Shown: positions 2,606 to 56,408, counted from the stretch's first letter. The stretch: 64,000 nt of DNA from Abditibacterium sp. (GCA_965199495.1 CBDASK010000003.1:4192001-4256000); one strand, 5' to 3'. The notes: generated by a model from the sequence alone, not told the origin. Numbers and translations are program-made.

Positions 2606-4330
2606 TTAATTCTCGTCTTGCGATTTTTTGTCGGTGGAACGGAGCGATACATCGCGCAAAACCAGATTTTTTTCCGGGCCGCTCCACACGCGCTGAAAAA
2701 GCTGGAAGTTGCCGCCAAACTTTCGGCTGCTCTCATCGGGCGGCGACAAAATCATCGTAATTCGATCTTTTTCGTGTCCTTTCTCTGCTGGATCGCCCTC
2801 GTCGAAAGTGCTGCTCGAATTGTCAATTACGCCTTTTTCGTCATAAAAAATTTGTCGCTTCAGTTGCATATCATCTTGCGCCAAATATGCGCCGGGCGCC
2901 AAATCGAATGTCAGCATCAATGCTGCGCCGCCCGAAAACCGTAGATCGTCCTTCAAACTTTCATCGTCAATCCAGATGATGCGGCGCAAATACCAAACGC
3001 CATCGAAAATTTCTTTCGGCCCAAATTCAATCATATCGTTGCGTTTGGGCAACGGCACGAGCGGCAAAACGTGCGCGCTTAGAATGGTGCGCGCACGTTG
3101 CGCAGTTACGGTTACATCGGCTTTATCGGTCAGATTTTCGGGGCGACGAAGCGAGAATGACGACGAGGTTTCGCTCGCGTCCGTCAGCGAATTATCCGTG
3201 TGAAATACGCTATGCCAACCCCACGTTGATCCAAACAAATCGCGTGGTTGCCCATCTTTTTGCAATAACGTCGCATCTTTAGCTTTGAACGTCCAGATTT
3301 GGCCATCGGGCGCGGGCGCCAAATCGCGTAGCCAGAGCCGGACTTGCGGTTTCCCCTCAGGCTCCGAATCCCGCATTTCCCAGCTCGCCTCGAACGATTC
3401 GTTGCGCGCTTTCACCGCAGTCACGGCGGGCTGGTGAACTGACAAAGGCGCCATTTTCCACAACGCCGCGACGGGAATCTCGAACGAGACGCGCTGCGAC
3501 GCATCGTTGGCGCGCCAGCGCCGCGTGCTTTCGATCAGCTCGAATGTATAAGCCACACTGCGCGCCTCGTTTGGCACGTTGAGCAATTCAATCTCGATTT
3601 CGCCATTTCTGTCGGCATCAATGGAGGAGGTTGTTTCTTCGCCGATATTTTTGCCGCCAGCGCCCAAGTAATTTGCACGCACGTTCTCAAAATTTGCCTT
3701 AACTTCAGGCGCGTCAGTCGGAGGTAAAAATTTCCAATAGGCGACTAACTTCGAGCCAAGGCCAAACTTTTTGCGCGTCAGTTTTTCCAAACGCAATTGC
3801 GAACCCCGCACGGTTTTAAATTCGATGGGAAGTTGAATGATCGTTTCTTCGCCGTCGTTAGAAGGAATCGGCGGCAACTCCGTTATCTGAAACTTGCGGT
3901 GAGACAAGGCGCGGCCCGTGGCTGCAATCGGGCGCGCGGGATCGCGAATCTCAAACTCGGCGCTCACGTTTTTCCATAACGGCGAAACTTCGCTTGAATA
4001 GAGCCGTTTGCCTTGATGGTCGGTGTTCAGCAATGGCGTCCCATCGGGTGCGAATAAGCTAATTAAATCCACCGATTTGTTGAGGGTTTCTGCGTCCCAT
4101 TTCCCCGTGGGCGCAGTGACATCGTAAGAGAAGTAAAAACTACCGTCGCCTCTGACTTCGCCAAATCCGGCGTCGGTGATTTGCAATTGCAGACCGTTCA
4201 CTTCGCGCGCGGGTGGCAACAGCGCGGCGACTTTGGAAATGGGCGCCGCTTCTTGCGCATGGGTGACGCCACAAAAAATGAACAAAGCACCTACCGCAAT
4301 GGCGGCGCGCGAAATAGGAAAAGAAAACAT
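2606..4330 (-). CDS. Secreted hypothetical protein
   Basis: Long ORF with signal-peptide-like N-terminus (MFSFPISRAAIAVGALFIFCGVTHA). Confidence 0.7.
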   Translation of the reverse strand: MFSFPISRAAIAVGALFIFCGVTHAQEAAPISKVAALLPPAREVNGLQLQITDAGFGEVRGDGSFYFSYDVTAPTGKWDAETLNKSVDLISLFAPDGTPLLNTDHQGKRLYSSEVSPLWKNVSAEFEIRDPARPIAATGRALSHRKFQITELPPIPSNDGEETIIQLPIEFKTVRGSQLRLEKLTRKKFGLGSKLVAYWKFLPPTDAPEVKANFENVRANYLGAGGKNIGEETTSSIDADRNGEIEIELLNVPNEARSVAYTFELIESTRRWRANDASQRVSFEIPVAALWKMAPLSVHQPAVTAVKARNESFEASWEMRDSEPEGKPQVRLWLRDLAPAPDGQIWTFKAKDATLLQKDGQPRDLFGSTWGWHSVFHTDNSLTDASETSSSFSLRRPENLTDKADVTVTAQRARTILSAHVLPLVPLPKRNDMIEFGPKEIFDGVWYLRRIIWIDDESLKDDLRFSGGAALMLTFDLAPGAYLAQDDMQLKRQIFYDEKGVIDNSSSTFDEGDPAEKGHEKDRITMILSPPDESSRKFGGNFQLFQRVWSGPEKNLVLRDVSLRSTDKKSQDEN

Positions 4331-27279: not shown

Positions 27280-28470
27280 TTAGTTCTTGGATTCGACGCG
27301 CCAAAAAGTGCCCTCGCTGACAAGGACGACGCACGCGAATTGCGCTGTTAATACCACGTCGCCGCCCGCGAGATTTGTGACCGTTAGCGTGTTTGATGCG
27401 ACTGTTTTCCATATCGAATAACGCCGACCGGGACACGTTGACGCGGCGGGCAATGACTGAGAAATGCTCGCGTTTGTCGTATCGAATCCGATGCTGTGAT
27501 GTTGTTCTGATAACGTCACAGCGTCGGTTGAGACAATGTGCGAACCTAATGCGACACTGCCGTTGCCGTGCAAATGCGAGTGAGGCGCCGTCACTCCCGC
27601 AAAACCTACTTTATTTAGAGCAATTGTGAGCGGATAATAAACGACCCCATCACCATAATTCTCCGTTAAAAATCTGTGATATGGTTCATAACGCCCGTTA
27701 TAAACCATGCCATTATTCCGTTGAATTGACATGTTCACACCGCCCCAAAAAATTAAATTTGGCCCCATATTCAAAGACGGCATTGACTCAATTCCCGTTA
27801 CCCCGCCAAAATTTGCGGTGTAGTCCTTTTGTGCAGGGTCTCCGAAATAGATTCTGCGCGAACCTGTGTTGCTACTGATAAAAATAGCGTCAACGGCAGG
27901 ATTGGCGGGGTCGGGTCGTAACTCAATTTTCGCTCCAGCGCTACCGGGCAGGTTCGCGATTTTGTTGAGGTCTAAACGATTCGCTGAAAATGGTGCGTTA
28001 AGATTCGTAAATCTCCCGTCATCGCCCGCCGCCGCGCCGATATTGCCCCGCGCCGTCGCCTGTTCCGCCGTCGTCAATCCGCCCAACAGACGCGCCGCCT
28101 TGCCCTGAATCGCTGTCCAAAGATTCGCGAGAACATTGCGCAAAAACGACGACGCGCCCTCGTTGGTAACATCGAGCGTGGGGAGACCGCTGTCGTCAAT
28201 CGCATCAATCGCGGCTTGCAGTGATTCAAAATCATCCGCGCTCGCAGCCTCAATCGCATTACGTCCCGCTTCTGCGTCTGACGACGTGAGCAACGCGCGC
28301 CCGGTGCCGGTTGCGTCGCTGATTTTGTCTGAGGTGACATCGCCGACGCCGTCGCTGACATCGCCGCCCTGCACAATGCTATGCGTGGCCGGATCGTAAG
28401 CCAGGGAGACCGCGCCAAGCGCCGCTTGAAAGGGCGCGGTGTCAACAGTAATAAATCGTGGAAGTCGCAT
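27280..28470 (-). CDS. Putative tail fibre protein
   Basis: ISDATGTGRALLT..AGRNAI and EQATARGNIGA fibre-type repeats; C-terminal LPAASTCPGRRYSI motif. Confidence 0.65.
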   Translation of the reverse strand: MRLPRFITVDTAPFQAALGAVSLAYDPATHSIVQGGDVSDGVGDVTSDKISDATGTGRALLTSSDAEAGRNAIEAASADDFESLQAAIDAIDDSGLPTLDVTNEGASSFLRNVLANLWTAIQGKAARLLGGLTTAEQATARGNIGAAAGDDGRFTNLNAPFSANRLDLNKIANLPGSAGAKIELRPDPANPAVDAIFISSNTGSRRIYFGDPAQKDYTANFGGVTGIESMPSLNMGPNLIFWGGVNMSIQRNNGMVYNGRYEPYHRFLTENYGDGVVYYPLTIALNKVGFAGVTAPHSHLHGNGSVALGSHIVSTDAVTLSEQHHSIGFDTTNASISQSLPAASTCPGRRYSIWKTVASNTLTVTNLAGGDVVLTAQFACVVLVSEGTFWRVESKN

Positions 28471-36350: not shown

Positions 36351-36443
36351 GTCGCCGTCCGGCGAAAAGGACGCCGATAAACAGAAACGCCCCGCTTGAA
36401 TCTTGGTAGGACGAAAAGCGGGGCGTTGGTAGGAATAAACCCA

Positions 36444-36977
36444 ATGGAAAATATACCACAAAACGCGGGCGATTTCAACGCCCCCAGTGAGAACGCCACC
36501 CCTGCCGTTTCTCCCACTCCTAACCAAGACCTGCTAAAGGTCGGACTTTTCTCGTCCGTTGACCTGATGGCTCTAAGAAGCTTTGGGGATACGCCGATGC
36601 AACTGGCGACGGCGGCGCAAGAGTTAATCGCCGCTACGGAAACTAAGCCTCGCAATGAGTGGGGCAACTACGGACGCTTTGATTTTTCGAGCCAAGCCGA
36701 TAGTGCCCGTAACGCTTATGCGGCGATTCGCATCTGTCGAACCGCCCTCGATTTCCTCGAAGCGGACTTGGCAAAATCGGTCGATTTTGAGAGCTACAAT
36801 TACCGGCAACAGGTATTGCTTTTCACCAAATGGTCGCCTCCAAAGTCAAGGGTAGAGAGTGCCGAGGATGCTTACTGGGAGTTAATGGAGCGGTTGAATG
36901 AGGCGGGCCTGTCTTACGATGAGTTCAAGGAAATCATGGACGAAGAGGCGGGCGACGATGGGGAGGTGGAAGCCTAG
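36444..36977 (+). CDS. Acidic hypothetical protein
   Basis: ATG after aggaat RBS; first gene of the plus-strand module. Confidence 0.65.
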   Translation: MENIPQNAGDFNAPSENATPAVSPTPNQDLLKVGLFSSVDLMALRSFGDTPMQLATAAQELIAATETKPRNEWGNYGRFDFSSQADSARNAYAAIRICRTALDFLEADLAKSVDFESYNYRQQVLLFTKWSPPKSRVESAEDAYWELMERLNEAGLSYDEFKEIMDEEAGDDGEVEA

Positions 36978-36979
36978 TC

Positions 36980-37017
36980 GGGCGACGTGGCTGCTGTTGA
37001 TAGCAGCCACGTCGCCC
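36980..37017. other. Perfect 16-bp intergenic hairpin
   Basis: gggcgacgtggctgct-gttgat-agcagccacgtcgccc. Confidence 0.75.
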
Positions 37018-37028
37018 TTGGCCTTGAC

Positions 37029-37376
37029 ATGAAACTACAAGCCAAAGGAGACAGCAAACAAAAGCGAGTGACTCGAATTGTCCTCGAAGCCGAAACGCGA
37101 GCCGACGAAGCGGTTTTATATGCGAAGTATTTGGAGTTGAAGGAAGAGACTCCTAAGCTCGCGTCAATCTACCAAGACGTGCTCGACCTGGTCGAAGAGG
37201 GCATCGGCCTCGCCTCCGAAATTTCCGATGCTCTCGACGTTCCTCTGACCGCAATGAACAACCGTCTGGCTCACCTCAAGAAGATGGGCCTCATAGAGCG
37301 CGAAAAGGTTGCCGCCCCTGCTGGCGGGCGCCGCTTCATTTATCGAATTAGTTCGACGGAACAAGGAGATGCTTGA
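37029..37376 (+). CDS. Winged-HTH (ArsR/MarR-like) protein
   Basis: ASEISDALDVPLTAMNNRLAHLKKMGLIER..GGRRFIY. Confidence 0.75.
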   Translation: MKLQAKGDSKQKRVTRIVLEAETRADEAVLYAKYLELKEETPKLASIYQDVLDLVEEGIGLASEISDALDVPLTAMNNRLAHLKKMGLIEREKVAAPAGGRRFIYRISSTEQGDA

Positions 37377-38005
37377 TGAGCGATAAAACTTTCGGCGCAC
37401 GACTGCGCCAGATGCGCGAGGCAGTCGGCATCAGTCGGCGTGACTTGGCGGCGCGCGCGCAACTTTCCGAAACGTATATCGAGAAGGTGGAGCGCGGATA
37501 CAATGCGCCGCCGTCGGCTTTAGCGATTGCCGACATTGCGCGCGCGCTCCGAGTTGACGGCGATGAGCTTTTCGCCCTTGCGGGCAAGCTGGCGCCCGAC
37601 TTGGAGCGCCGCTTACGTTCGGAGCCGTTATTAGTGCTGGCCTGTCGTGCAGCCACGGCGATGTCGTCTTCTGACTTGCGAGCCTTCTTGATCACGCAGG
37701 GAGTGAGCGGGGAGAAGATGGATTGGCAGGGCGCCGAGGTGACGATGAACGACGAAAGGCGGGTGCGGCGGGAGATTATCACTTCGGAAATGAAGCGCGC
37801 AGTCTTTCATCTTGACAGTCACGAGTGCGTTTATTGTTCGTCGGCGAAGTTGCTTGAAGTTGATCATGTTCAGCCGTTTTCATCGGGCGGCACCAATGAC
37901 ATTGAAAATCTGGTGACGGCTTGCGAGAGGTGTAACAAGAAGAAGTCGAATCGTGCCACGCCGTTTGTTATGGTGTTTGGGCGATTTCGGGGGGAGGTAA
38001 AATAA
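37373..38005 (+). CDS. XRE HTH - HNH endonuclease fusion
   Basis: N-terminal FGARLRQMREAVGISRRDLA; C-terminal CVYC..LEVDHVQPFSSGG..NLVTACERCNKKK. Confidence 0.85.
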   Translation: MMSDKTFGARLRQMREAVGISRRDLAARAQLSETYIEKVERGYNAPPSALAIADIARALRVDGDELFALAGKLAPDLERRLRSEPLLVLACRAATAMSSSDLRAFLITQGVSGEKMDWQGAEVTMNDERRVRREIITSEMKRAVFHLDSHECVYCSSAKLLEVDHVQPFSSGGTNDIENLVTACERCNKKKSNRATPFVMVFGRFRGEVK

Positions 38006-38007
38006 TT

Positions 38008-39345
38008 ATGAAACGAATGCGCGCCTACAAAGTGGAGCTTGCTCCGAATAATACTCAGAAAACCGCACTGCTTCGTCATTGCGGTGCGGCGCGATTCGTT
38101 TACAATTGGGGACTAAACGCCAAGATCGAAGCTCGCAAAGGCGGCGAAAAGCCTCTGTCCGCCCAAAAGCTGGACGGAGTTTTGCGCTCGATCATGGACG
38201 AAGAATTCCCTTGGATGCGAGAGGTTTCGTCCCAATGCCGCCAGGGGGCGCTCGCCAATCTTGAAGCGGCTTACAAGAATTTTTTCACTCGCTGCAAGAA
38301 AGGCAAAAAGGGGCGCGCAACTGGCTTTCCCAAATTCAAAAGTCGCAAGAATGGACTCGGAGGGTTCGTCGTCTTTGGATATACCATCACGAATGACTCG
38401 GTAAAAATCTCTCGCGTCGGCACCGTTCGACTCAAAGAAAAGGGCTATTTACCGATTGGAGGCTATGGAAAAAATTCTGATACCGTGCGCTTTTATGGTG
38501 CGAGAGTGAGTGAGCGGGCGGGTCGATGGTTCCTTTCTGTTCAAGTTGAGGTCGAAGCGCCCGAACCTGATCAGAAGTCGGAGAGGATTGTTGGCATAGA
38601 TTTCGGCGTGAAAACGTTAGCGGTTTGCAGCGATGGCACCACGTTTCAAAGCCCCAAGGCGCTCAAGGCCAATCTGAAGCGGCTGGCGCGCGCGCAACGT
38701 TCGATGAGCCGTAAGATTGAAGCGGCTAAGAAGTCTGGCCGCGCCTTGCGCGAGTGCAAAAACTTTCAGAAGTCAAAGACGCGCGTGGCGAAAATCCACG
38801 CGCGAGTGGCCGATTTGCGGCGCCATAATCTGCACCACGTTTCTCATGTGCTGACGCGAAAATCAAGCGTTTTGTGCATCGAAGATTTGAACGTGGCGGG
38901 CATGGTGAAAAATCGGCATTTGGCGCGCGCGATTAGCGATTTAGGCTTTGGAGAGTTACGCCGTCAAATCGAATATAAATCGGAGTGGCGCGGCGTTGAA
39001 GTCGTGATTGCAAATCGTTGGTTTCCCAGTTCAAAAACGTGTAATGCGTGCGGACTGGTGAATCAGGAATTACAGTTGAAGGATCGAGAATGGAAGTGTG
39101 AGTGTGGCGAGCGGCATGACCGCGATTTGAACGCCGCTTATAATTTGAGAGATTTGGCCGCGAATCGCGCGGTGTCTGACTGTGGAGGGAAAAGCTCTGG
39201 CGATGCGCTTGCGCGTCGTGAAACTATTCCCTGTGAAGCAGTAAGCGGGCTTGAAACTCTGGTTTCTATCAGCCCCGCACCTACTGAGAACAGTAGCATC
39301 CCTGTGTGGGCGGTCGGGAAAAACGGACAATTACGATGGTGTTAA
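38008..39345 (+). CDS. tnpB: TnpB / Cas12-like RNA-guided endonuclease, CRISPR-associated
   Basis: RAYKVEL..RFVYNWGL, GFPKFKSRK, RuvC-I VGIDFG, RuvC-II CIEDL, zinc finger CNAC/CECG, RuvC-III DRDLNAA; no tnpA nearby. Confidence 0.93.
   Translation: MKRMRAYKVELAPNNTQKTALLRHCGAARFVYNWGLNAKIEARKGGEKPLSAQKLDGVLRSIMDEEFPWMREVSSQCRQGALANLEAAYKNFFTRCKKGKKGRATGFPKFKSRKNGLGGFVVFGYTITNDSVKISRVGTVRLKEKGYLPIGGYGKNSDTVRFYGARVSERAGRWFLSVQVEVEAPEPDQKSERIVGIDFGVKTLAVCSDGTTFQSPKALKANLKRLARAQRSMSRKIEAAKKSGRALRECKNFQKSKTRVAKIHARVADLRRHNLHHVSHVLTRKSSVLCIEDLNVAGMVKNRHLARAISDLGFGELRRQIEYKSEWRGVEVVIANRWFPSSKTCNACGLVNQELQLKDREWKCECGERHDRDLNAAYNLRDLAANRAVSDCGGKSSGDALARRETIPCEAVSGLETLVSISPAPTENSSIPVWAVGKNGQLRWC
39180..39345 (+). 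ncRNA. Putative omegaRNA/tracrRNA-like scaffold with anti-repeat
   Basis: Hairpins gcgggcttga..tcagccccgc and ctactg-agaa-cagtag; anti-repeat catccctgtg-N9-gggaaaaac at 39297-39324; boundaries approximate. Confidence 0.6.
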
Positions 39346-39363
39346 ATCCTATCTGTCATGTGT

Positions 39364-39514
39364 GTTTTTCCCACACGCACAGGGATGGATGGAATACCTC
39401 AAGGCGACCGGCGAACTGCTCGATGTTTTTCCCACACGCACAGGGATGGATGGATTGTTTTCCGACCAACTACACCGAAGCGGGCGTTTTTCCCACACGC
39501 ACGGGGATGGATGG
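39364..39514 (+). CRISPR. CRISPR mini-array: 3 x 29-bp repeats, 2 x 32-bp spacers (type I-E-like)
   Basis: GTTTTTCCCACACGCAC(A/G)GGGATGGATGG at 39364, 39425 and 39486; spacers 39393-39424 and 39454-39485. Confidence 0.92.
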
Positions 39515-39723
39515 CCTTGGGAGGGGCCGGTTGCCTGATGCGTCATTATTGGTGTGGGGTGAAGGCACAATGGCTATATGTGGACTTTCTGCGCGGGTGG
39601 CGCCGCGCTTGCACAAAAGTCGCTTGGCATTTATATGGCGACGCGACAATCTCCCTCGAAAGAAATATGAGTAAGGCAATAGTAGCATTAGCGACCTCAT
39701 CGAATACTCGCCGCCATCATGAA

Positions 39724-39752
39724 GTGTTCCCCGCGAGTGCGGGGATGAACCG
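39724..39752 (+). CRISPR. Solitary canonical type I-E repeat
   Basis: GTGTTCCCCGCGAGTGCGGGGATGAACCG; no repeat 61 bp up- or downstream. Confidence 0.8.
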
Positions 39753-39834
39753 ACTGAGTGAGTTAGCTTTCGCAACGAAGCGATGGCAAAAGCGTCGTAT
39801 AAAGTCCCGCAAAGTGAATCTCTTCTTTTGACCC

Positions 39835-39862
39835 TTGTCAAAGGCATTAAATTCGCTAAAAT
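39835..39862 (+). promoter_or_regulatory. Sigma70-like promoter
   Basis: TTGTCA-N16-TAAAAT, then aggagg RBS before ATG 39903. Confidence 0.5.
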
Positions 39863-39902
39863 TAAGTGAGTGATTCATTCACTCACAGGAGGCAAAACAT
39901 CA

Positions 39903-40124
39903 ATGGCAATAAAATCACGGTCAAGGACGTTCACTGTCGAGCCGTCTTACACAGAACTGGTTAATCCCGCACTTTTTTTGAAGATGTGCAAAAGTAGCAG
40001 AGAAAACATCGAGTTCGTTCGCATAGTCCCGCCGCGCCTCGGCAGCAAAACGGTTGGCGGACGAATTTTGGTCAGGCGCAAAAAACCCATCTATCGGATG
40101 CCATTTCGGAGTCCGATTAAATGA
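39903..40124 (+). CDS. Small basic hypothetical protein (moron)
   Basis: Strong RBS; overlaps the next gene; low GC. Confidence 0.65.
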   Translation: MAIKSRSRTFTVEPSYTELVNPALFLKMCKSSRENIEFVRIVPPRLGSKTVGGRILVRRKKPIYRMPFRSPIK

Positions 40125-40588
40125 TGAATCTGCCTGAAAACAACAACTCAGCGTCAGAGCCACAATCCCTGATTCAAAACCCAGAAATTTTGGCTGTGAT
40201 GCTGAAAAACCAAGAGTCTGAAATTCGAGTCCGCAGCGAAGACATCAAGTTTAAAGACAAAGAGCTTGGCTTACGTGAACGAGAAATAGATAAAGCTCAC
40301 GAGTTCGCAATGAAGTCGCTTGATGTGCAGGCATCAGATAGAGTCGATGAAAGGAAGTTTCAAAGGTCTCTTACGACCAAAATATTTTTGTTTCTTGGGA
40401 TTGCCTTAAGCATGATTGTTTTGGGGTTCTGCTATGCCATTCATCTTGGTAAAGATGCAATCGTGATGGAAATTGTCAAAGCGATGATTTATCTGGGTGC
40501 TGGCGGTCTTGGTGGCTACTCTGCAAAATCCACCAAAGATAAAAAGAAAAATGATGATGAAAGCTGGGCAGAAGAAGACGAGGATTGA
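40121..40588 (+). CDS. Coiled-coil, two-TM membrane protein (DUF2335-like, moron)
   Basis: N-terminal coiled coil, two TM helices, GLGGY motif; low GC. Confidence 0.65.
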   Translation: MMNLPENNNSASEPQSLIQNPEILAVMLKNQESEIRVRSEDIKFKDKELGLREREIDKAHEFAMKSLDVQASDRVDERKFQRSLTTKIFLFLGIALSMIVLGFCYAIHLGKDAIVMEIVKAMIYLGAGGLGGYSAKSTKDKKKNDDESWAEEDED

Positions 40589-40597
40589 ATAATGAAT

Positions 40598-40630
40598 AAA
40601 AGGGACTGGCGAATTCGCCAGTCCCTTTTT
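40598..40630. terminator. Bidirectional intrinsic terminator
   Basis: aaaagggactggcgaattcgccagtcccttttt. Confidence 0.85.
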
Positions 40631-40667
40631 GCTTTTTCGAGAGTTTTGATTTAAAATTGAGGGCACT

Positions 40668-41471
40668 ATGCAATGCCCCTTCTGCTCTTACCAATTATCT
40701 GACTTCGAGGATGCCGCTCACTGCCCTAAATGTCATGGCAAAGGCATCCCGAAACCTACTATTGTGCCGCCACAGTCGCCACCCCATGTTCCCTATAATC
40801 CGACGATTCCCCACGCCCTAACTCCCATCAAACGCGGCCCCAACGCGTGGCTGATCTTGGCGATTGCCGGAGGCGTCTTCGCCTTCATCCTGGCGCTGCC
40901 CCTTCTGTTGGTTGGCGGATTGGTCGGAGTTGGCAGCCAAATCAAAGGGCAAATCGAGGCCGATAACAACGCCGCACTCTCCGCAAACTCGGCATTGCCC
41001 GCGCCGACCATAGCTCCAGTTGGGGCACCAGTCTTTGTCCCAACGCCGTTTTCAACTCCAACGAGTGCACTACCCAAAGCGCGGACTGTGGCACCTGCCG
41101 CCGATGAATCGTCGGGACTGCCTCAATTTGAGGCGGCGAGCGGCTGGGTTGTTTACGCGCGAAAGAGCATGGATGCCATTCGCTCGGCTCCCTCGTCGCA
41201 GATCGCATCGCTGCAGTATCTGGAATTGCTGAGTTTGGAACGCGACCTCGAAACCGAGAAGCAACGAGCCATTGCCGCGCGCCAGCCGGGTCGCGCCACA
41301 ACATTCGGTATCGTCGCCGAAGTGCCGCGCGCTCTGGCTGAAGCCGCCGATACCCGCGCCAAATTCCTGCGCGGAACCTTGGGCGAACGCGAATACCGCG
41401 CTTACATGAGCGGCTCAGACACCACGACCGACTTTGTGGCGCGTCAGGCCGATGGCCGAGCATCACGTTAG
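40668..41471 (+). CDS. Zinc-ribbon, single-TM membrane protein
   Basis: CPFC..CPKC, Pro-rich linker, TM helix. Confidence 0.65.
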   Translation: MQCPFCSYQLSDFEDAAHCPKCHGKGIPKPTIVPPQSPPHVPYNPTIPHALTPIKRGPNAWLILAIAGGVFAFILALPLLLVGGLVGVGSQIKGQIEADNNAALSANSALPAPTIAPVGAPVFVPTPFSTPTSALPKARTVAPAADESSGLPQFEAASGWVVYARKSMDAIRSAPSSQIASLQYLELLSLERDLETEKQRAIAARQPGRATTFGIVAEVPRALAEAADTRAKFLRGTLGEREYRAYMSGSDTTTDFVARQADGRASR

Positions 41472-43571: not shown

Positions 43572-44131
43572 TCCGCGTCCTCGCGCCCGATGCCCGATTT
43601 CTCGATCACCCTCAGCATCACGAGCTGCTGGTCGTCGCCGTTGAGTTGGCCAAACGCTTTGACCGAAAATGGGCGCTCGTAATCCCATCCGGCGAGGGTC
43701 TTCTCGAACACCCAGCGCGCGATCATCGCGTTTTCTTGCTGAGCGTTGCGATAACCCTGCTGCAATCGCTGGCGCAGCGCCACGGCCTCGTCGTGTTTGC
43801 CTTCTGTATCAAGCTCCTGCGCGCGTGGCTCTTCCAGAGCGGGCGCGCGCATGGCGGCGACGACGGCCTTGCAACGAGTCACAAACTCGCCGTATGTCTC
43901 GTCATCCATCTCGCGCGCATAAACCACGCCGCCGGTCGTCGGCACCTCAAAGGTGTAAACATTCGCGCCCTGCTCATCACGAAAAGCGGCTCTACGCAAA
44001 CCGGCGGGGACAAACGTTTGTTCGACGAGAGTGCCATCAGCAGTGAGTTCGGCTTCGGGCACTTCGGTTGGGGCTTTCGCCACGGGGGCTTTGCGAGTTC
44101 TGGGATTGGAATTAGGTTTGGACATGATCAA
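43541..44131 (-). CDS. Tail assembly chaperone (gpG-like)
   Basis: Between tail tube and tape measure; LAGWD motif; slippery site near the 3' end. Confidence 0.72.
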   Translation of the reverse strand: MIMSKPNSNPRTRKAPVAKAPTEVPEAELTADGTLVEQTFVPAGLRRAAFRDEQGANVYTFEVPTTGGVVYAREMDDETYGEFVTRCKAVVAAMRAPALEEPRAQELDTEGKHDEAVALRQRLQQGYRNAQQENAMIARWVFEKTLAGWDYERPFSVKAFGQLNGDDQQLVMLRVIEKSGIGREDADFLVDDLLAL

Positions 44132-45075
44132 ATCAAAGTGAGTTCGAGCGAATCGGCAGTAAAAGGCACGGAAAAATCGAGTTCGCCGTTGCTTTCAACG
44201 CCCTGCATCGTTTCGTCAGAAGGAAACGGGCCGTGAATCGTCAACTCGAAACCTTTGTTTGCTTCGACATCGCTGCATCCGACGACGATGCTCTCCCAAT
44301 CCTGCGCTAAAACAGAACCATCAAACAGCGCCTTGGCCAAGCGCGCATGAAGCGACATTTCGCCGTCAACTTTTTGCTGATGATCCATCAGTTCAAACGC
44401 AGTGATAGAAGACGGCGCGTTGTCGCCGTAAAAAGGCGTGTTACTTTTGGCCTCGACGGAATAATCTGCCTTAGCTGTAAGGTTAATCAGATAGCGGCGG
44501 TAATTTTTGACCGCGCCAGTGCTGTCGGTCAAGTTGCACTTTTTCACGTCGTGCCACATCAAAGGCGTGCCCAGCGCGCGCAATTGGGCCGGAGTGACAA
44601 CCAGAGCACCTATCTCCTGCCGCTCAATCGCCATGAAGTTGGCGGTGACGTTGAGTTCGCCGCCGCCATCGGCGCTCCCGCCAAAATTGAAATCAACCGA
44701 ACCGGGCTTGCAGTGACGGTAAACGATGGTATATTGGCCTTTGACGACGACGAAAATCGCCAGATAAGGCAACTTGCCATTGGCATCTGGGAACAACTGC
44801 GCCAGAGCAGCCACGTTGCCGGGCCGAACGGCGACCGTGATCGTCGGCTTGCGCATCCCGCGCTTATTATAGGCCGCACCCTGTTGGCCGACGGCGTAAC
44901 CCTTGGAGTTGTTGAGTCCGCGATTGTTTTGCGGAGAATCGGTATAGCCCAGCACGACTGGCGACGAAGGCACCGACGGATAGGCCGCCATCGTGCCGTC
45001 GTCGAGCAGGTCGGGCGGCGGCGCGGTTTCAATCGCGTAAAGCACAGCAACGTCGTGCGCAGGAATAAATGGCAT
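44128..45075 (-). CDS. Major tail tube protein
   Basis: Size, beta-rich composition and position; C-terminal ELDFSVPFTA. Confidence 0.65.
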   Translation of the reverse strand: MPFIPAHDVAVLYAIETAPPPDLLDDGTMAAYPSVPSSPVVLGYTDSPQNNRGLNNSKGYAVGQQGAAYNKRGMRKPTITVAVRPGNVAALAQLFPDANGKLPYLAIFVVVKGQYTIVYRHCKPGSVDFNFGGSADGGGELNVTANFMAIERQEIGALVVTPAQLRALGTPLMWHDVKKCNLTDSTGAVKNYRRYLINLTAKADYSVEAKSNTPFYGDNAPSSITAFELMDHQQKVDGEMSLHARLAKALFDGSVLAQDWESIVVGCSDVEANKGFELTIHGPFPSDETMQGVESNGELDFSVPFTADSLELTLI

Positions 45076-49918: not shown

Positions 49919-51982
49919 TTAGTCGGCGGCGGCAATCAGGGCGGAATCGTCCATCTCGGCAAAGCGGCGCTCTGCCTCGGCGAGTTCGAGTTCCGCCAGT
50001 TCGTCGGCGAGAGATTTCATCTCGGCGGGCGCGTCGGCTTCGGTTCGCACCGTGTCGGGTGCGGTCGCGTCATCGAGGGCGTGCGTTTCGAGCAGATCGG
50101 CCATTTCGTCTTCCAACTCCTTCAAGCGAGAGTGGTAGGTCGTCAGGCGTTCCACGTTCAATTTGCTCAAGACCCGTCCGGCTTTGCGCGAGCCAGCGCG
50201 CAGTTCGATCAGGTCTTCGACACGCTCTTGATACTCTCCGATGGCCGCCACGATCTTCTCGGAGTGGGAACCAAAGGTGGTGTGTTGGAACTCGGTGCCC
50301 AAAGTCGCCGCTTCGTTACGTAACGATTTCGCGGCCTCTTCGGGCGTCTCGTCGGCGCGCATCTCCAAAACGAAATCAACCATCTTGGAAACCATCGCCG
50401 TGAAGCCCTGCAAGTTGGCTTGCAAGAAAGCGAGGCGCTCTTCTTTGGTCGGCGGCACGAGCGTGGTCAGGCCCAACTGCTGCGATTCCGTCGTCGGATC
50501 AAGCACCGACGGCAGCACGCTATAACAAAGTTGATCCATCGCATCGCGCAGGGCACCACCGAGCATCATCTGGCCATCGAACTGCCATCGCTGTTCGGCG
50601 GCGGGGTTGAGAAAAGCCTTGGTTTCGTCTTTGGCGTCCTCTTCATCGCTTTGGGCGAGGTAGACCTTGATTTCGTCAACGCGCTCGTCGGTCGGAATAT
50701 CGTCCCACGATTTGTGACTGCCCAGCAACGCAGATCGGAACTTACCATCATTCTTGGCGCCTTTTCCATCACGGTTGATGATGGTATGCACCTCGCCGAC
50801 ACTGCCTTCCGATTTGTTGATCGCGTTCAGCACCTTCGACATATCCACGATGTTGGCGATGTAACCCTTTTTGACGGCCTCGGTCACGACGTTGGAGATC
50901 ACGCTGTTCTCGTTGTGACCGGCTTGCTTGAGCAGCGACGAAGTGTCCTTTTTGCTTAGCGGCTTCTCGGCATCGCTGGATTTGGGCTTCTCGCCCTTTT
51001 CGTTTTTGCCCTTGCCCTTGTCTGTGGGTTTGTCCGCAAAGCTGGAGAATTTGCCATCGCCGCTACCGTGTTCGTTGATATGTTTGCTCAACTTCTTTTC
51101 GTCGTGACTATCATTGGCGCTGTTGGAAAGCACGTTGTGGAGATCGGCCACCGAGTTAATGTGGCCTTTCTCATACGCTTCCGTCACCACGCTCATCGCC
51201 ACACTATTGGGCTTCACTCCATATTGCTTGGCAATCGCCTCTACTCGTTCAGGCTTGAGTTTTGACGGAGCCTTTGCTCCTGAGCCGGACGACGAACCGC
51301 CCGAACCCCCGGATGAACCGCCAGAGCCGAACTTACCATCGTCGGCGCGCGGGTGCTTCGATTCTTCCCAGTCGGCTTTGGTTTCTTCGCTCTCGTCTTC
51401 CCTGGGCGTCAGGTCGCTCAGCACGCGAACGGCCTTGGCGTAGGAGACGTTGCCCAACCAGTCTTCGGGAACGCTTTTGGCTTCCTCCAGACTGCGAATT
51501 CCGGTCATGCGGAACTCGGCGGGCGTGGGCGTGAACGAAAACTCGAAGATCGGCCACTGGATGATTTCGCCGCACTTCACACCGTCGCGGCGCTTGACCG
51601 CGCGCGTGATCGCGCCGCTCGACCAACTCAGCGCCTCTTCCTCGGTCAACTCATATATTTTGCGCTCGTAGGCGTTGCGCCGGTCGAGGATCGTCGCCAC
51701 CAGCAAACCGTGTTCGTCTGGATGCGCTTTCACCGTCGGCGGCAGCAGAATACCCGAATACGATTTGAGTGCGGGCGTGAGCGGGATCGCATGGTGAAGC
51801 AGGCAATTGACGCCGACGCCACGACTCGCGCCCAGATTGGTATCGGGCGTGAACCAGTCGCCGCCCAGATCGGTGTTCTGCGCGTCGCCCCATAGCAATC
51901 CGTAATCGCCGACAGTCACAAAGTCGCCGTTGGTTTCGAGCGATTTGAGTGAGCCACCAGTGTTGATGAGAAGTTCGTTCAT
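49919..51982 (-). CDS. Prohead protease with inserted HPR-motif cargo domain and scaffold-like C-terminus
   Basis: DLGGDWFT, LLHH, LSWSSGA, WPIFEFSFTPTPAE; internal WEESKHPRADDGKF. Confidence 0.8.
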   Translation of the reverse strand: MNELLINTGGSLKSLETNGDFVTVGDYGLLWGDAQNTDLGGDWFTPDTNLGASRGVGVNCLLHHAIPLTPALKSYSGILLPPTVKAHPDEHGLLVATILDRRNAYERKIYELTEEEALSWSSGAITRAVKRRDGVKCGEIIQWPIFEFSFTPTPAEFRMTGIRSLEEAKSVPEDWLGNVSYAKAVRVLSDLTPREDESEETKADWEESKHPRADDGKFGSGGSSGGSGGSSSGSGAKAPSKLKPERVEAIAKQYGVKPNSVAMSVVTEAYEKGHINSVADLHNVLSNSANDSHDEKKLSKHINEHGSGDGKFSSFADKPTDKGKGKNEKGEKPKSSDAEKPLSKKDTSSLLKQAGHNENSVISNVVTEAVKKGYIANIVDMSKVLNAINKSEGSVGEVHTIINRDGKGAKNDGKFRSALLGSHKSWDDIPTDERVDEIKVYLAQSDEEDAKDETKAFLNPAAEQRWQFDGQMMLGGALRDAMDQLCYSVLPSVLDPTTESQQLGLTTLVPPTKEERLAFLQANLQGFTAMVSKMVDFVLEMRADETPEEAAKSLRNEAATLGTEFQHTTFGSHSEKIVAAIGEYQERVEDLIELRAGSRKAGRVLSKLNVERLTTYHSRLKELEDEMADLLETHALDDATAPDTVRTEADAPAEMKSLADELAELELAEAERRFAEMDDSALIAAAD

Positions 51983-52170
51983 AGGAACCGATTTCGGTAA
52001 ACCGCGTGACAAACGCAAAAACGCCAGCCTCGCAAAAATGGAGGCTGACGTTCGGGACGTTCGGCTCTATGAAGAAAAGCGCATCACGCGAATTCGCGGG
52101 CGTTCAAGGACGCTCAGGATGAGCGCGCATTTCGTTACGTAACTAATTGTAAGCGCCCGCGCGGGCCGTG

Positions 52171-52425
52171 TCAACTCCCTAAAGCCACGATCACTTTCGT
52201 CAATGCGTCCGCCGTTTCAGAAAACGCGCGCCACTTACCGTCACGATAACCGATTTCGTATTCCATCGTGATCCGTTCGGACTCGCTCATGGAATCCGTG
52301 ATTTCATCGCGCAGGGATTGCGCGCTTTCCAGCGCATGATTGGCGGATGCAGTGAAGACAGCGACCTGCGTTTTGAGAAGCTCGATTTCAACAGCGCTCA
52401 CCTGGGTTCTCCCTTGACATTGCAT
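52171..52425 (-). CDS. Small hypothetical protein
   Basis: ORF in the chain of small head-module genes. Confidence 0.45.
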   Translation of the reverse strand: MQCQGRTQVSAVEIELLKTQVAVFTASANHALESAQSLRDEITDSMSESERITMEYEIGYRDGKWRAFSETADALTKVIVALGS

Positions 52426-52712
52426 TTGACGAAGCGGCCATCATAAAACTCCGATGCTGGCCTCACCCAGACGATCCCGTCGAGATTAGATTTATAAATC
52501 ACGACCTTTTGTAAATCCGCTTCTACTTGACCTTCCGCGATGACGCTATAAATGCCTCCGCTCTTGGTGTGCCGATAAAAATCATAGTCCAGTTCGTCAC
52601 GGAGGAATTTGCCAATTGACCAAAGGGGAGCCATTAGCAAAAAACGAGCAGAGTTCCGCAATCGAAGAGAAACTTCCGCAAAAATTGAATCACTTTCAAC
52701 GGCTTGCTCCAA
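52398..52712 (-). CDS. DUF1653-like protein
   Basis: YRHTKSGGIYSVI..VVIYKS..VWVRPASEF..RF. Confidence 0.75.
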   Translation of the reverse strand: MEQAVESDSIFAEVSLRLRNSARFLLMAPLWSIGKFLRDELDYDFYRHTKSGGIYSVIAEGQVEADLQKVVIYKSNLDGIVWVRPASEFYDGRFVKCNVKGEPR

Positions 52713-52893
52713 CGTTTGTGCTTAGATGAGCGCGCAGACGCTTTTCGCGCTCGCAGTTCACGTCCACGACCGTCGTCAGGTCGCGCCGCCGAATGCGAAT
52801 GGCTCCCGTCACCAGTGAAAGCTCGAAGAGCAAGCGTCCGTTAGCGTCGTGAATAGGTTCCCATTCTTTGGGGAGCATTTGGGTTTGATTCAT
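52696..52893 (-). CDS. Small hypothetical protein
   Basis: ATG 5 nt after the SMI1 gene stop. Confidence 0.5.
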   Translation of the reverse strand: MNQTQMLPKEWEPIHDANGRLLFELSLVTGAIRIRRRDLTTVVDVNCEREKRLRAHLSTNVGASR

Positions 52894-52897
52894 AGGC

Positions 52898-53377
52898 TTA
52901 TTCTTCGTCCTCTGCTTCCCAACTTTCAAGCCATTCGCTCAAATTGTCAGCGATGACGGCCAGATCGGAAACTTTCGCGTTTTCGGGCGCGGTCTCGTGA
53001 TCCCAGAACAGTATCGCACCACTCCCAGCGTCGAGACAGGCGAAGTTACCGCCCGCATCAATGGCGAGCGGCACACAGCCTTTGGGCAAGCGGTCGCCCA
53101 GCAACCCGACGGTCGTTTCGACATCGTAAGCGCCACCGACAAAACCAAGCGTGGCCGTCAGTTCGGTTTGGCCCTCGTCAACGGGGAACGTGACTTCGCT
53201 CCATCCGTGGCCACCGCACACGCGCAGAAAATCGCGAACCTCGGTGGCCAACTCGCCATTGATCTGTTCGTCGAGTCGGTCACAGGCCGCATCGAAATCG
53301 TCGCCCTTTGGTTGCGGTTTGCCAAGTTTGTAGGCACCATATTTTTCGAGCAGGGCGGAGAAACCTTCGGAGTTCAT
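52898..53377 (-). CDS. SMI1/KNR4 (SUKH) immunity protein
   Basis: LATEVRDFLRVCGG, LPKGCVPLAIDAGGNFACL, ILFWDHE, IADNLSEWL. Confidence 0.88.
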   Translation of the reverse strand: MNSEGFSALLEKYGAYKLGKPQPKGDDFDAACDRLDEQINGELATEVRDFLRVCGGHGWSEVTFPVDEGQTELTATLGFVGGAYDVETTVGLLGDRLPKGCVPLAIDAGGNFACLDAGSGAILFWDHETAPENAKVSDLAVIADNLSEWLESWEAEDEE

Positions 53378-53395
53378 AGAGAATAAAAGTATCGG

Positions 53396-53884
53396 TTATT
53401 TGGAAGCGCACAGACTGTGCCCACCGGTGTGGTGCGCGGCGTTGTGGATAATGGTCGGCACCAAGATCATCTTCTGGCGATTGCAATCTTCGAGATGATG
53501 CCAGGTCAACTCTTTCTCGGTGCGCAACCGTTTGACGCGCGCGACATCGGGCTTGCCGTTCTTCTTTTTCCAACCCAGCTTCTCGGCATAGGCCGCGTCG
53601 GCTTCTTTAAAATCTTCGTTGCGGTCGCCATGAAATTCAAGGTAAATGCGGCTCGAAATCGGGCGCCCTCTCTCTCCCCGCTCGCGCGCGATGAACGGCT
53701 CCAATCGAGGGAAACCGCGCCTATACTGCACGCCGCGTTGCCCAGTCGCTTCAAGCGCTGTTCGCACGGAATCGGCTCCGAACAAGCCATCGGGCGGGCG
53801 CCACAGCGAGTTGCCGCGCTCGCCCTCGAACCCCTCGCGCGGCATCTGGTGCCCGCTTACGACTTTGTAAGAGAGTTTTTTTTT
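53396..53884 (-). CDS. HNH/EndoVII-fold nuclease toxin (WHH type)
   Basis: GFEGERGNS, GVQYRRGFP, LTWHH..MILVP..IH..AHHTGG; frame open back to the A9 run at 53876-53884. Confidence 0.85.
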   Translation of the reverse strand, partial: KKKLSYKVVSGHQMPREGFEGERGNSLWRPPDGLFGADSVRTALEATGQRGVQYRRGFPRLEPFIARERGERGRPISSRIYLEFHGDRNEDFKEADAAYAEKLGWKKKNGKPDVARVKRLRTEKELTWHHLEDCNRQKMILVPTIIHNAAHHTGGHSLCASK

Positions 53885-54096
53885 GCTCCAGAGCCAAACT
53901 CGCCGTTGTCGGCGCGCGGATGATCGTCTTCGTGCCAGTCGGCTTTGATTTCGTCTTCGTCATCAACGCAAACGCAGTCGGCATATTCTATCCAATCTTC
54001 GCGCGTGAGCGGAGGCTCTTTACAAGGCGTAACGTTGAGAGTTTCACCTTTCCATTTGAAAGCGCCTATGGGTGGATTCGCAGTGACTTGATTCAT
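53857..54096 (-). CDS. HPR-motif leader peptide of the toxin
   Basis: EIKADWHEDDHPRADNGEFGSG followed by A AAA AAC. Confidence 0.7.
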   Translation of the reverse strand: MNQVTANPPIGAFKWKGETLNVTPCKEPPLTREDWIEYADCVCVDDEDEIKADWHEDDHPRADNGEFGSGAKKNSLTKS

Positions 54097-54140
54097 AGTT
54101 TTTCTCTCTTAAGTTTACCAGAAATCACGGTGAATTGCCT

Positions 54141-56408
54141 CTATTTCGGAGCAATCCACCCGTGTCGTTCGAACAATTCGTCCAAGGCTTTGGCGATGGG
54201 TTCAAACTCGTCGGGATCCCAAAATTCGGGGTAGTGCAAATCGTGTTTAGTCAAACCCCCAAAGGCAGTTCTTTGACTAAAGGACATATGATGCGCCAAC
54301 TGTTTTCGTAAAGTAGGGCTGCCGCTTCGGGTAACGATGTATTGAGTATAGGCGCGGGCAAAAACTTCTTCCGGCGCCAGCAAATAGGCCACATGCTTTC
54401 TGTCGATTTGGTATTCAACCTCGATGGGATCGTGCCGTGTCAACCCCTTTTCTGTCAAAGTTTTGGCTTCTTTAATTTCCATTAAAAATTGAAATGCGCG
54501 AGTGCTGGTTACCGCCGCGTGGAACTGCGTCCACTGCTCGTCATATTCTTGCTGCTCGTCCCCACTCCAATCCAGATGAAGTCTGTGAGTCGAAAAAACT
54601 TCACGCGCCTCCTTGTCTTCGCCCATCCCTTTATGATCCAAAAAATGACCTATCTCGTGAATCACTGTCAGATACGGCGTTGGATTCCTCGGAGTGACAC
54701 TAAGAGAAAGAGTCTCACCCTTTGGAGAATATTCGTATTTACCCTGTTCACCTCTTTCTTCTGCGGGTTTGCGGGAAAGAGGAACGGTTGGTAGCTCTCC
54801 ATCTCCATGCAATTTGTCGATGACTTTGAGAATAGGCGCCAAATTTTTAGCGTTGGCTTGCAGTTGCAACCCTTTGCTGACAGAACGACCTTGGGGCGTG
54901 AATGGATGGGGTGTGGCCCGAACGAGCGTGCTGACCAAACCGGGCGTGATTTCGTTCCACGAAACTGTGGGTTTGTTTATGCTGGAAGATAAACTCCCAT
55001 CTCCGAATTGCCCGTTGTCAGCGCGTGGGTGTTTGACTTCGTCCCAATTAGCATCAGCAGATTTGGCTTCGTTTTCCTCAACAGATTCTTCTTCTGCTTC
55101 TGCTTCCTCCAACGCGGGCAACTTCGCTTTCTCGCGCGCCTCGTTGGGCTGCATCCAGCCGCCTGCAACGGCTTTGGTCACGCGGTCATAAAGCGCGCCT
55201 TCATCGTCTTGCAGCGCCGCGATCTGTGAGCGGTCAAAGCCGATGCGCCATTCCGATTTGTCCATTCCGAAGAGCGGGAACAGTTGCGCTTCGAGTTCGC
55301 CGCCTTTGCGGTTTTGCAGGGGAATAATGTTGCGTTGCCAGAAATCATCGATGGCCTCGCCGTAGTTGGCGTAAGTCTTGGTGCCGTCGCCCGCCGAGAA
55401 TCCCAGAACCATCGGCGGCGTTTTGATGGCCGCGCAGATGCGCGCTTCATAATGCGCGGGCAACTTATCCAGCGCTAACTCATCGGGCGAAAAGCTGATT
55501 TTATGAAAGTCCACTGGCAGGTTCGATCCAGCCACGCGCCCGGCGCCCTCGCGCCGCAGTCGCCGTTCCGTCTGCGAGAGAACCGTTTCCATCTCTCGCG
55601 TCGTGAGGGTCGCGCCCTCTTTGGCCGTGAGGAAGAACGAGGCGCCCGCGCCATTTTTGAGAACGGCTGTTTGATAAGTCGCGGCGATGTTGTCGCCCGC
55701 GATTTCACGATAGACGCTGAGGAGCGGCGATTCGCCAAAACGCGGGTTGCGCCGGTTCAAACGATAGCGAAAATGCAGCGCGTGATCGACGCGCGCATTC
55801 CTCATCGGGTCGTCGGGATTGCCATAGAGCGCCGAAGCCGCGAGCGGGTAGGGCCGACCATCCACGAAGATGCGGTAGGAGCCGATGAAGTGATGCAGAT
55901 CGAAGACCGGCGCGATCAGGCTTTCGTGCCACAGTTCGACCGGCTGGGTGCGCGCGCGATTCCAGACCGCGCGCATATAGCCGTTGCCGGTAATCAGTTC
56001 ACCCGCGATCTCGGCTTCCCACAACTGGTCACGGCCATAGTGCGGGTTGGGATTGTGCAGCAGTTCGATCAACGGGTGCATCTCGACGCGGTTCCAGTTG
56101 TCGCCCGAACGTTGCTCCAAAACAAACGGCGCCGCGCAGAACGCTTCGGCGATGGCCGACACTGCCGCGCTCACCACGCCGTTGAGTGAAACTTCGCCCA
56201 CATCCGAGGAATAATCGTCGCGGCTGCCCGCAGCGTCTGACGCGCCAAAATCGGCGTTGCCCGATACCGCGCCCGCCGGCAAATAGCCCGACGCCGAAGA
56301 CGAACCGGATAAACCGGTGCCCCAGTTGGAAAACGGCGTGGTGCCCGACGGCGCAAGCGATGCCGCCACGGCTTTAACGCCCGCACCGACCGATTCAAAA
56401 AGGTTCAT
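54141..56408 (-). CDS. Phage portal protein with C-terminal zincin-like extension
   Basis: LLHNPNP, ITGNGY, FGESPL, ICAAIKTPPMVLG, TYANY, MQPNEAREK; then WDEVKHPRADNGQF, HEIGH and EEVFAR. Confidence 0.92.
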   Translation of the reverse strand: MNLFESVGAGVKAVAASLAPSGTTPFSNWGTGLSGSSSASGYLPAGAVSGNADFGASDAAGSRDDYSSDVGEVSLNGVVSAAVSAIAEAFCAAPFVLEQRSGDNWNRVEMHPLIELLHNPNPHYGRDQLWEAEIAGELITGNGYMRAVWNRARTQPVELWHESLIAPVFDLHHFIGSYRIFVDGRPYPLAASALYGNPDDPMRNARVDHALHFRYRLNRRNPRFGESPLLSVYREIAGDNIAATYQTAVLKNGAGASFFLTAKEGATLTTREMETVLSQTERRLRREGAGRVAGSNLPVDFHKISFSPDELALDKLPAHYEARICAAIKTPPMVLGFSAGDGTKTYANYGEAIDDFWQRNIIPLQNRKGGELEAQLFPLFGMDKSEWRIGFDRSQIAALQDDEGALYDRVTKAVAGGWMQPNEAREKAKLPALEEAEAEEESVEENEAKSADANWDEVKHPRADNGQFGDGSLSSSINKPTVSWNEITPGLVSTLVRATPHPFTPQGRSVSKGLQLQANAKNLAPILKVIDKLHGDGELPTVPLSRKPAEERGEQGKYEYSPKGETLSLSVTPRNPTPYLTVIHEIGHFLDHKGMGEDKEAREVFSTHRLHLDWSGDEQQEYDEQWTQFHAAVTSTRAFQFLMEIKEAKTLTEKGLTRHDPIEVEYQIDRKHVAYLLAPEEVFARAYTQYIVTRSGSPTLRKQLAHHMSFSQRTAFGGLTKHDLHYPEFWDPDEFEPIAKALDELFERHGWIAPK

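Follow-up and report, generated by a model that had tools for sequence, protein, structure and literature searches.

A phage-borne IS607-type TnpB that may draw its guides from a type I-E-derived CRISPR mini-array

TnpB has given rise to type V CRISPR on many occasions, and few cases show how the guide RNA and the array were joined. Does a locus in Abditibacterium sp. preserve such a case? We studied a 64,000-nt stretch of its genome (GCA_965199495.1 CBDASK010000003.1:4192001-4256000), which we call the window and whose positions we use throughout. It contains a tnpB gene with a short CRISPR array just behind it. We think it quite probable, from the sequence and from comparison with relatives, that this is a functional array-guided TnpB nuclease that acts against rival phages, with a single guide that carries spacer 1 and a split RNA that carries spacer 2.

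The gene (38008-39345, + strand) encodes a protein of 445 amino acids in which the Pfam families HTH_OrfB_IS605, OrfB_IS605, and Cas12f1-like_TNB all score above their cut-offs. In an alignment, the RuvC residues D198, E292, and D373 and the zinc-finger cysteines C345/C348/C364/C366 are kept across the 9 closest proteins. An earlier reading of this DNA from the sequence alone (the sequence-only reading) had described a 445-aa TnpB with all three RuvC acidic motifs and a zinc finger, and that description holds. Our AlphaFold model has a mean pLDDT of 88.7 and is confident up to residue 390, the end of the folded core. The pLDDT is below 50 across most of residues 393-445, which are predicted to be disordered and to be the guide-RNA scaffold read as protein. 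The top structural match of the model is the IS607 TnpB of ISFba1 (Z 32.4, rmsd 3.3, 370 aligned residues, 35% identity), and ISDra2 TnpB has Z 30.6. The NCBIfam scores are under their cut-offs, at 291 bits for IS607_TnpB (cut-off 350) and 299 bits for IS200_TnpB (cut-off 425).

The ancestor of this TnpB was an IS607 element, given two features of its relatives at about 40-49% identity: 106 of their 128 distinct tails have an RNA end like GAGAACGG (counting the window and the close homologue L002, where the match is internal), and, among array-less relatives, 14 of 30 have a resolvase just upstream, versus 0 of 5 among array-bearing ones. The window does not have what a mobile IS607 element would have, namely a serine-recombinase tnpA or a left end, and several copies: tnpB is single-copy in the 4.8-Mb genome, save for one fragment that is 25% identical. 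A gene for a fused XRE-HTH and HNH endonuclease (37373-38005, + strand) stops 2 nt before the TnpB start codon, so no transposon left end remains. In agreement with the reported absence of tnpA and cas1/2, there is no cas1, Y1 transposase, or resolvase within the window, and the genome's matches to these are all elsewhere. Both genes belong to a + strand cassette (about 36400-41470) among minus-strand virion genes. The prophage setting that had been claimed also stands, with a capsid gene identified by Pfam and terminase- and portal-like ORFs recognized by eye. Elsewhere in the window (49919-56408), the protease/scaffold-like and portal-like genes each have a similar short motif (DWEESKHPRADDGKFG, NWDEVKHPRADNGQFG) that opens an extra domain, and between these genes we see, by eye, a small SMI1/KNR4-like immunity gene, as well as a possible nuclease gene.

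What became of the right end? An IS607-type right-end RNA scaffold (reRNA or omegaRNA) lies at 39155-39286 (+ strand) and overlaps the 3' end of the gene. It matches the whole (1-143) of a covariance model built from 30 RNAs of relatives without arrays (57.4 bits, E ~1e-15); an Rfam search of the locus gave no match. A hairpin at 39281-39296 (+ strand), which recurs in L002 with changed pairs, holds the decayed right end of the ancestral element (GAGAACAG at 39286-39293). This end is still visible, and the RNA appears to have been prolonged past 39293, by an anti-repeat and then by the first repeat of the array. The sequence-only reading had proposed that the right end was replaced by the array, which would give an intermediate between TnpB and Cas12. 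The intermediate is favored by the retained scaffold and by the anti-repeat duplex and the pseudoknot compensation described below, but the old end seems to have been extended, not deleted. Just 5' of the scaffold is a promoter-like site (39116-39144, + strand, 10/12), which is a consensus match alone from a scan that gave 5 sites in 5 kb versus 3.9 expected by chance. We discarded an inverted match between 39269-39292 and a solitary repeat further downstream: it probably belongs to the scaffold, as most of it is also present in L002.

The array is as the sequence-only reading had placed it, with three repeats and two spacers at 39364-39514 (+ strand), starting 18 nt past the stop codon. Repeat 1 (R1, 39364-39392) and repeat 2 (R2, 39425-39453) are identical; repeat 3 (R3, 39486-39514) has one substitution, which keeps the anti-repeat pairing as G-U. 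The repeats are 29 nt and the spacers (39393-39424 and 39454-39485) are 32 nt, giving a period of 61. Contigs from the source run cover 37894-40627 with zero differing letters; they break at the repeats, and none spans the whole array. Two further runs give no informative coverage. R1-R3 are absent elsewhere from the 4.8-Mb genome even when 6 mismatches are allowed, and IMG/VR has no match to the repeat.

The anti-repeat that had been claimed inside the 3' end of the gene is also there: it is a tracrRNA-like stretch of 28 nt (39297-39324, + strand) that is read in frame as IPVWAVGKN in the TnpB tail. The duplex of R1 with the anti-repeat has a predicted energy of -33.3 kcal/mol, versus -24.9 for the best other site in the ORF, and 0 of 500 shuffled repeats pair as well as R1 with the gene's last 196 nt. 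R1-R3 share 19-20 of 29 positions with the type I-E repeats found in G006 (same genus) and in G016 and G019 (same family). These three genomes carry Cas6e and I-E arrays with a period of 61, and their repeat and spacer lengths equal the window's (59 of their 62 I-E spacers are 32 nt). In two respects R1-R3 have departed from this type. R1 folds on itself with just -5.9 kcal/mol, versus -10.0 to -14.4 for the I-E repeats of the host's lineage, and the 3' end is ATGGATGG in R1-R3, versus ATGAACCG in the three genomes and in the solitary repeat. As substrates for type I-E crRNA, R1-R3 thus have neither a stable hairpin nor the canonical 3' end. Canonical I-E repeats pair with the anti-repeat as well (-23 to -31 kcal/mol); R1 fits it better than they do, but not exclusively. 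We suggest that I-E-derived repeats exchanged their own hairpin for pairing with the anti-repeat.

The repeat also seems to fit the scaffold. The activity of IS607 TnpB requires a pseudoknot between a stem-loop and the bases that precede the guide (according to the accessible text of PMC10711439). In the window, the loop of scaffold stem-loop 1 (39158-39172, + strand; loop AATCG at 39163-39167) is the predicted partner of the last bases of R1 (GATGG, 39388-39392, + strand). We surveyed 259 distinct tails, of which 113 had the stem and an IS607-like end, 94 lacked the stem, and 52 lacked the end. In 111 of the 113, G at loop position 2 is opposite C at -3 (our search pattern forced the C in this set), and positions 3 and 5 of the pseudoknot covary. 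All 9 of the repeat-ended loci, including the window, have A opposite T at this position (their registers were placed by eye), while the array-less L002 has G-C. The predicted pseudoknot has 3 bp in the window versus 4 in most relatives. So the loop is predicted to show a compensatory change that fits the borrowed I-E repeat. Since the repeat's last bases fit the loop, each spacer would begin where a TnpB guide begins.

At 39724-39752 (+ strand), 209 nt after R3, there is a solitary canonical type I-E repeat (R4) with an intact hairpin (-14.4 kcal/mol, z -3.4). This repeat, like the I-E origin of R1-R3 and the IS607 lineage of the TnpB, had escaped the sequence-only reading. Like solitary repeat units (SRUs), it is intergenic and has no similar repeat within 100 nt. 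It is a candidate for an RNA anti-CRISPR or a leader-repeat unit, and its function is probably separate from the TnpB array. As described in the accessible part of PMC10651486, solitary repeat units or RNA anti-CRISPRs are likewise canonical host-type repeats in intergenic regions of prophages, isolated by more than 100 nt and without cas genes; the difference is that the present host of the window has type I-B, not I-E. The sequence that follows R4 has 2 non-self matches, versus 5 for the control. There is a weak promoter-like stretch about 100 nt upstream of R4, below our scan threshold. Directly after R4 is a gene pair (39903-40588) that matches PHROGs 2711 and 2720 (hypothetical), followed by a perfect two-way terminator (40598-40629).

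What would the array target? Spacer 2 matches, at 27 of 32 positions, a tail-tube-like gene that belongs to a prophage of a same-genus genome (G003:C107). The mismatches are at positions 2, 5, 8, 26, and 27, of which the first three fall on the third positions of codons. The chance of such a match over the 201 genomes is roughly 0.005, assuming uniform base frequencies. The other 3 prefix matches of spacer 2 have 20-24/32; a reversed control gave 6 prefix matches, so only the extended match counts. There was no match to spacer 2 in IMG/VR. Because the mismatches at 2, 5, and 8 are in the seed, we take the G003 prophage to be a relative of the target rather than the target itself. The G003 gene is a homologue of the window gene at 44128-45075 (35% and 31% identity, in two pieces that flank an assembly gap). 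The window gene has no match in PHROGs; its neighbors are tail genes, and it is similar to tail-tube clusters of the ESM Atlas (0.97; PF18906 on 53% of members), a recognition that is under the usual threshold. The phage's own copy of the spacer 2 site matches at 15/32, and nine related tail-tube genes match at 9-18/32. The 5' flank of the G003 site ends in GGGCG, in which the -2 base falls on the third position of a codon. The TAMs reported for IS607 are GGG, AGGAG, and GAGGG. The target motif here is probably G-rich like these, and a single flank defines no TAM.

For spacer 1 we found no convincing target. Its 15 non-self 22-nt matches in 201 genomes of the phylum (best 25/32), its best match in 33 loci and the window (22/32), and the matches to its degenerate codon patterns, both in 31 genomes of the class (1 match, 22/32) and in IMG/VR (5 matches, 17-22/32), are all taken as chance. 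The sequence-only reading had suggested that the phage could use the nuclease against competing elements or against the host. The match of spacer 2 to a related prophage supports the former. As to the latter, neither spacer matches the chromosome of the present host with up to 8 mismatches.

The present host is also an unlikely source of the spacers. It has one type I-B system (Cas1b above cut-off), whose 131 repeats are 30 nt long and whose spacers are 32-38 nt, and its genome, which is 95% complete, has no match to Cas6e. Given this, and judging from the geometry of the array, the mini-array was probably extended in another host that had type I-E. The 62 I-E spacers of the relatives gave 3 partial matches and yielded no PAM. 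The host's I-B spacer 69 (G000:C3:2766475-2775027) matches the tail region of the window's prophage (28112-28147) at 24 of the first 25 positions, with 4 mismatches over its full length, which implies that the host has met a relative of this phage. Also, spacer 37 of the host's I-B system is identical (36/36) to a site on the host chromosome (G000:C3:593120-593155), so it is self-targeting.

Is the arrangement conserved? There are 8 proteins that are 59-79% identical to the window TnpB. Seven of them are known as proteins only, and whether they have arrays can be inferred only from the residues of their tails. The motif that encodes the anti-repeat is present in 4 of the 8 (P0002, P0003, P0005, and P0006), which are the only ones among 121 proteins to have it; it is partial in P0004, while P0008 is a truncated protein and P0009 a diverged one. 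A protein search with the TnpB tail alone returned the query as its single match. The remaining homologue, P0007, is 65% identical, and its locus (L002, in a phage-like region of genome G002) is the only locus of a close homologue among 31 genomes of the class and the assembled genome contigs. IMG/VR has no DNA of close homologues, a metagenome scan gave, among the matches listed, relatives at 40-49% only, and annotated phages have only relatives below 44% identity. L002 keeps the scaffold and has neither anti-repeat nor array: its RNA ends with a short hairpin and then GACGG. Array linkage in the window's subclade is therefore seen in 1 of the 2 loci with DNA. In trees, the array-less P0007 is sister to P0005, which has the tail motif, so it is likelier that an array was lost in L002 than that the window's array was newly gained. 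The sequence-only reading would count homologues that have normal IS ends and no arrays against its idea, and here the outcome is mixed: L002 has no array, and a neighboring clade has arrays. In L002 we also noticed, by eye, that the RNA end and the next bases are duplicated (about 1380-1485, minus strand; 51-nt period, 22/28 alike), and there is a second IS-end-like motif about 190 nt beyond the repeated RNA end.

The neighboring clade contains 38 proteins (support 0.999), mostly IS607-type TnpBs of phages, and 11 loci with DNA. In 9 of these 11 (8 distinct), the scaffold ends in a 28-29-nt I-E-like repeat; of the other 2, one is truncated and one has no repeats. The repeat-ended loci, with repeats 3' of the TnpB genes, are L029, L051, L032, L348/L270, L351, L364, L394, and L396 (the repeats at the contig ends of L029, L051, and L032 were identified by eye), and each has a matching change in its pseudoknot loop. 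The number of repeats ranges from 1 to 7, with three arrays cut by contig ends. In five loci tested, no anti-repeat rose above shuffled sequences, and the repeats of this clade mostly keep their own hairpin. Across 131 distinct viral loci, 6 have an array within 1.2 kb, and 5 of those 6 are in this clade. The two clades are sisters in a tree of 230 rows (0.943) and, with 48 chosen rows, in IQ-TREE (94/98, not starred), but not in FastTree with 293 rows. These trees neither show nor reject a single origin of the two.

Several other loci deserve mention. A viral contig (L269, about 3850-4030) has one repeat of this clade's type after a structured-looking RNA that by eye weakly resembles the scaffold; the IS607 scaffold model gave no match to L269. 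Genome G019, which has type I-E, contains matches to the IS607-type scaffold at L444 (G019:C107:15752-15873) and L446 (G019:C61:2146-2255), and no TnpB match is listed on the L444 contig. In L026 and L113, the right-end RNA is interrupted just past its first stems by what, judging from its start, looks like a group II intron. Finally, a distant phage TnpB (L288, 36% identity) has an AT-rich array about 370 nt after RuvC-III, with repeats of about 40 nt and a period of 74-76. This is a further pairing of TnpB with CRISPR that involves a different type of repeat.

If our preferred reading of an array-guided nuclease is correct, then an IS607-type TnpB, immobilized within an accessory cassette that a temperate phage carries, would have had its guide RNA rewired so as to read a CRISPR mini-array. 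The transcript would fold in cis to give a single guide with spacer 1, and, once divided into a tracrRNA-like part and separate repeat-spacer units, it could load spacer 2 too. The complex would cut DNA beside a G-rich 5' motif. Spacers would have been added in trans by the type I-E Cas1-Cas2 of an earlier host of the same genus or family, and the targets would be rival phages that infect the same hosts, which would amount to superinfection exclusion.

A narrower account, which we consider unlikely, is that the RNA is only ever a single guide: R1 and spacer 1 would form an ordinary reRNA end in cis, R2, R3, and spacer 2 would be passengers of spacer insertion, and the RNA would not be functionally split. 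When folded in cis, the anti-repeat and R1 do form a single long stem (-43 kcal/mol, z -4.5), and the RNA of L002 is single-ended. However, R1 and R2 are the same and the sole change in R3 keeps the pairing, the spacer that matches a phage is spacer 2, which could be loaded in trans only, and arrays in the related clade reach 7 repeats. It is also conceivable, though very unlikely in our judgment, that a formerly functional module is now inert or is an RNA-guided repressor. No perfect protospacer was found, the present host lacks I-E adaptation, and the module resides in a prophage that may be inactive, all of which would suit decay. But nothing interrupts the ORF, and every catalytic and zinc residue is present; the confident model has a core like that of active TnpBs; the RNA stems are intact; and the site that spacer 2 matches is deep within a coding region and not at a promoter.

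We give the least credence to the idea that by chance a phage mini-array, dependent on the Cascade of the host's type I-E system, ended up behind an orphan TnpB. Phage mini-arrays are known (accessible part of PMC11656645), the resemblance to the I-E repeats of the host's lineage extends to the geometry of the array, and a canonical I-E repeat lies a short way further on. The state of R1-R3 points the other way, as they lack the I-E hairpin and 3' end. Both are required by Cas6e and Cascade. Furthermore, the anti-repeat and the pseudoknot fit link the repeats to TnpB, and the same adjacency recurs at 8 distinct loci of the related clade.

Returning to the array-guided nuclease, how might it have evolved? 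A broader scenario, which we offer tentatively and rather doubt, is a wide and so far undescribed radiation of phage IS607 TnpBs that plugged into the spacer acquisition of host I-E systems in stages: repeats whose retained hairpin serves as the guide RNA's last stem (the related clade), then repeats that are re-paired to a new in-gene tracrRNA (the window), and then loss back to a single-ended RNA (L002). If this were true, the window would show a tracrRNA that arose after array capture while the protein was still a plain TnpB, and next to the TnpB module there would be an RNA that acts as a decoy for that I-E system of the host. In any case, the window appears to hold a base-level record, with a visible ancestral right end, a compensatory change in the pseudoknot, and a hairpin traded for an anti-repeat. 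Together with the related clade without anti-repeats and the array-less L002, it forms a series on which the order of events can be tested. The locus also points to phage-phage competition and to spacer acquisition in trans, and it would provide a nuclease with a core of about 390 amino acids and, probably, a G-rich target motif.

How does the locus compare with known systems? TranC systems were reportedly described by Jin et al. (Cell, 2025) as transposon-CRISPR intermediates. The window has their traits: a TnpB-like nuclease with intact RuvC, an array directly downstream without cas1 or cas2, and, by prediction, a scaffold derived from reRNA with an anti-repeat that pairs with the repeat. 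What follows rests on the accessible parts of the papers cited. TranC intermediates arose several times from the TnpBs of IS605 and IS607 (PMC13565253, PMC13639567). Like the window, they have a TnpB-sized nuclease of IS605 or IS607 lineage by a short array without cas genes, and their reRNA is split, as we propose for the window, into a tracrRNA-like part and crRNA (PMC13565253, PMC13639567, bioRxiv 10.64898/2026.03.27.714800). CauTranC9 is also phage-borne and TnpB-sized with phage-targeting spacers. On the other hand, the repeats of TranC clades 3, 9, 11, and 20 are 32-38 nt, versus the I-E-derived 29 nt in the window; LaTranC is only 23% identical to the window TnpB in a structural alignment (Z 22.1); and the TranC subtypes described in bioRxiv 10.64898/2026.03.27.714800 lack an unstructured tail that codes for tracrRNA, which the window TnpB has. 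In that respect the window is more like Cas12n (type V-U4), whose tracrRNA lies in an unstructured C-terminal tail and ends in an anti-repeat:repeat stem. Unlike the window's TnpB, with its core of about 390 amino acids, Cas12n proteins average 544 aa, and their REC and WED domains are enlarged (same preprint). RdCas12n matches the TnpB with E 1.4e-30 over residues 133-383 and structurally with Z 16.1 over 177 residues, well below the TnpBs.

Cas12r from the Lalka phages of Thermus resembles the window in other ways: it is a phage-encoded descendant of TnpB with 29-nt I-E-like repeats, spacers of 31-33 nt against competing mobile elements, and no adaptation genes, and its authors propose the host's I-E Cas1-Cas2 as the source of its spacers (bioRxiv 10.64898/2026.04.20.719267). 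But Cas12r as described there has 564 aa, belongs to a TnpB branch of thermophiles, and uses crRNA only, with no tracrRNA and an ARG PAM. The window's system is set apart from that description by its 445 aa, its full reRNA scaffold, and its anti-repeat. As for the TnpBs of IS607 (ISFba1, ISXfa1), they share the reRNA scaffold, the pseudoknot, and the GG end, and ISFba1 is the best structural match. The window's TnpB differs from them in having neither serine-recombinase TnpA nor left end, in being present in one copy, and in its guide, which would come from the array and not from flanking DNA. In a search of openly accessible literature, we found no paper that describes an IS607 TnpB whose repeats derive from type I-E and whose gene contains an anti-repeat. 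The window's clade may already be catalogued, as 40 V-U branches are listed in PMC10691335 (accessible text). The type of system is already described, in TranC, Cas12n, and Cas12r, and as far as the sequence can tell, the window's locus is a TranC-type TnpB-CRISPR intermediate.
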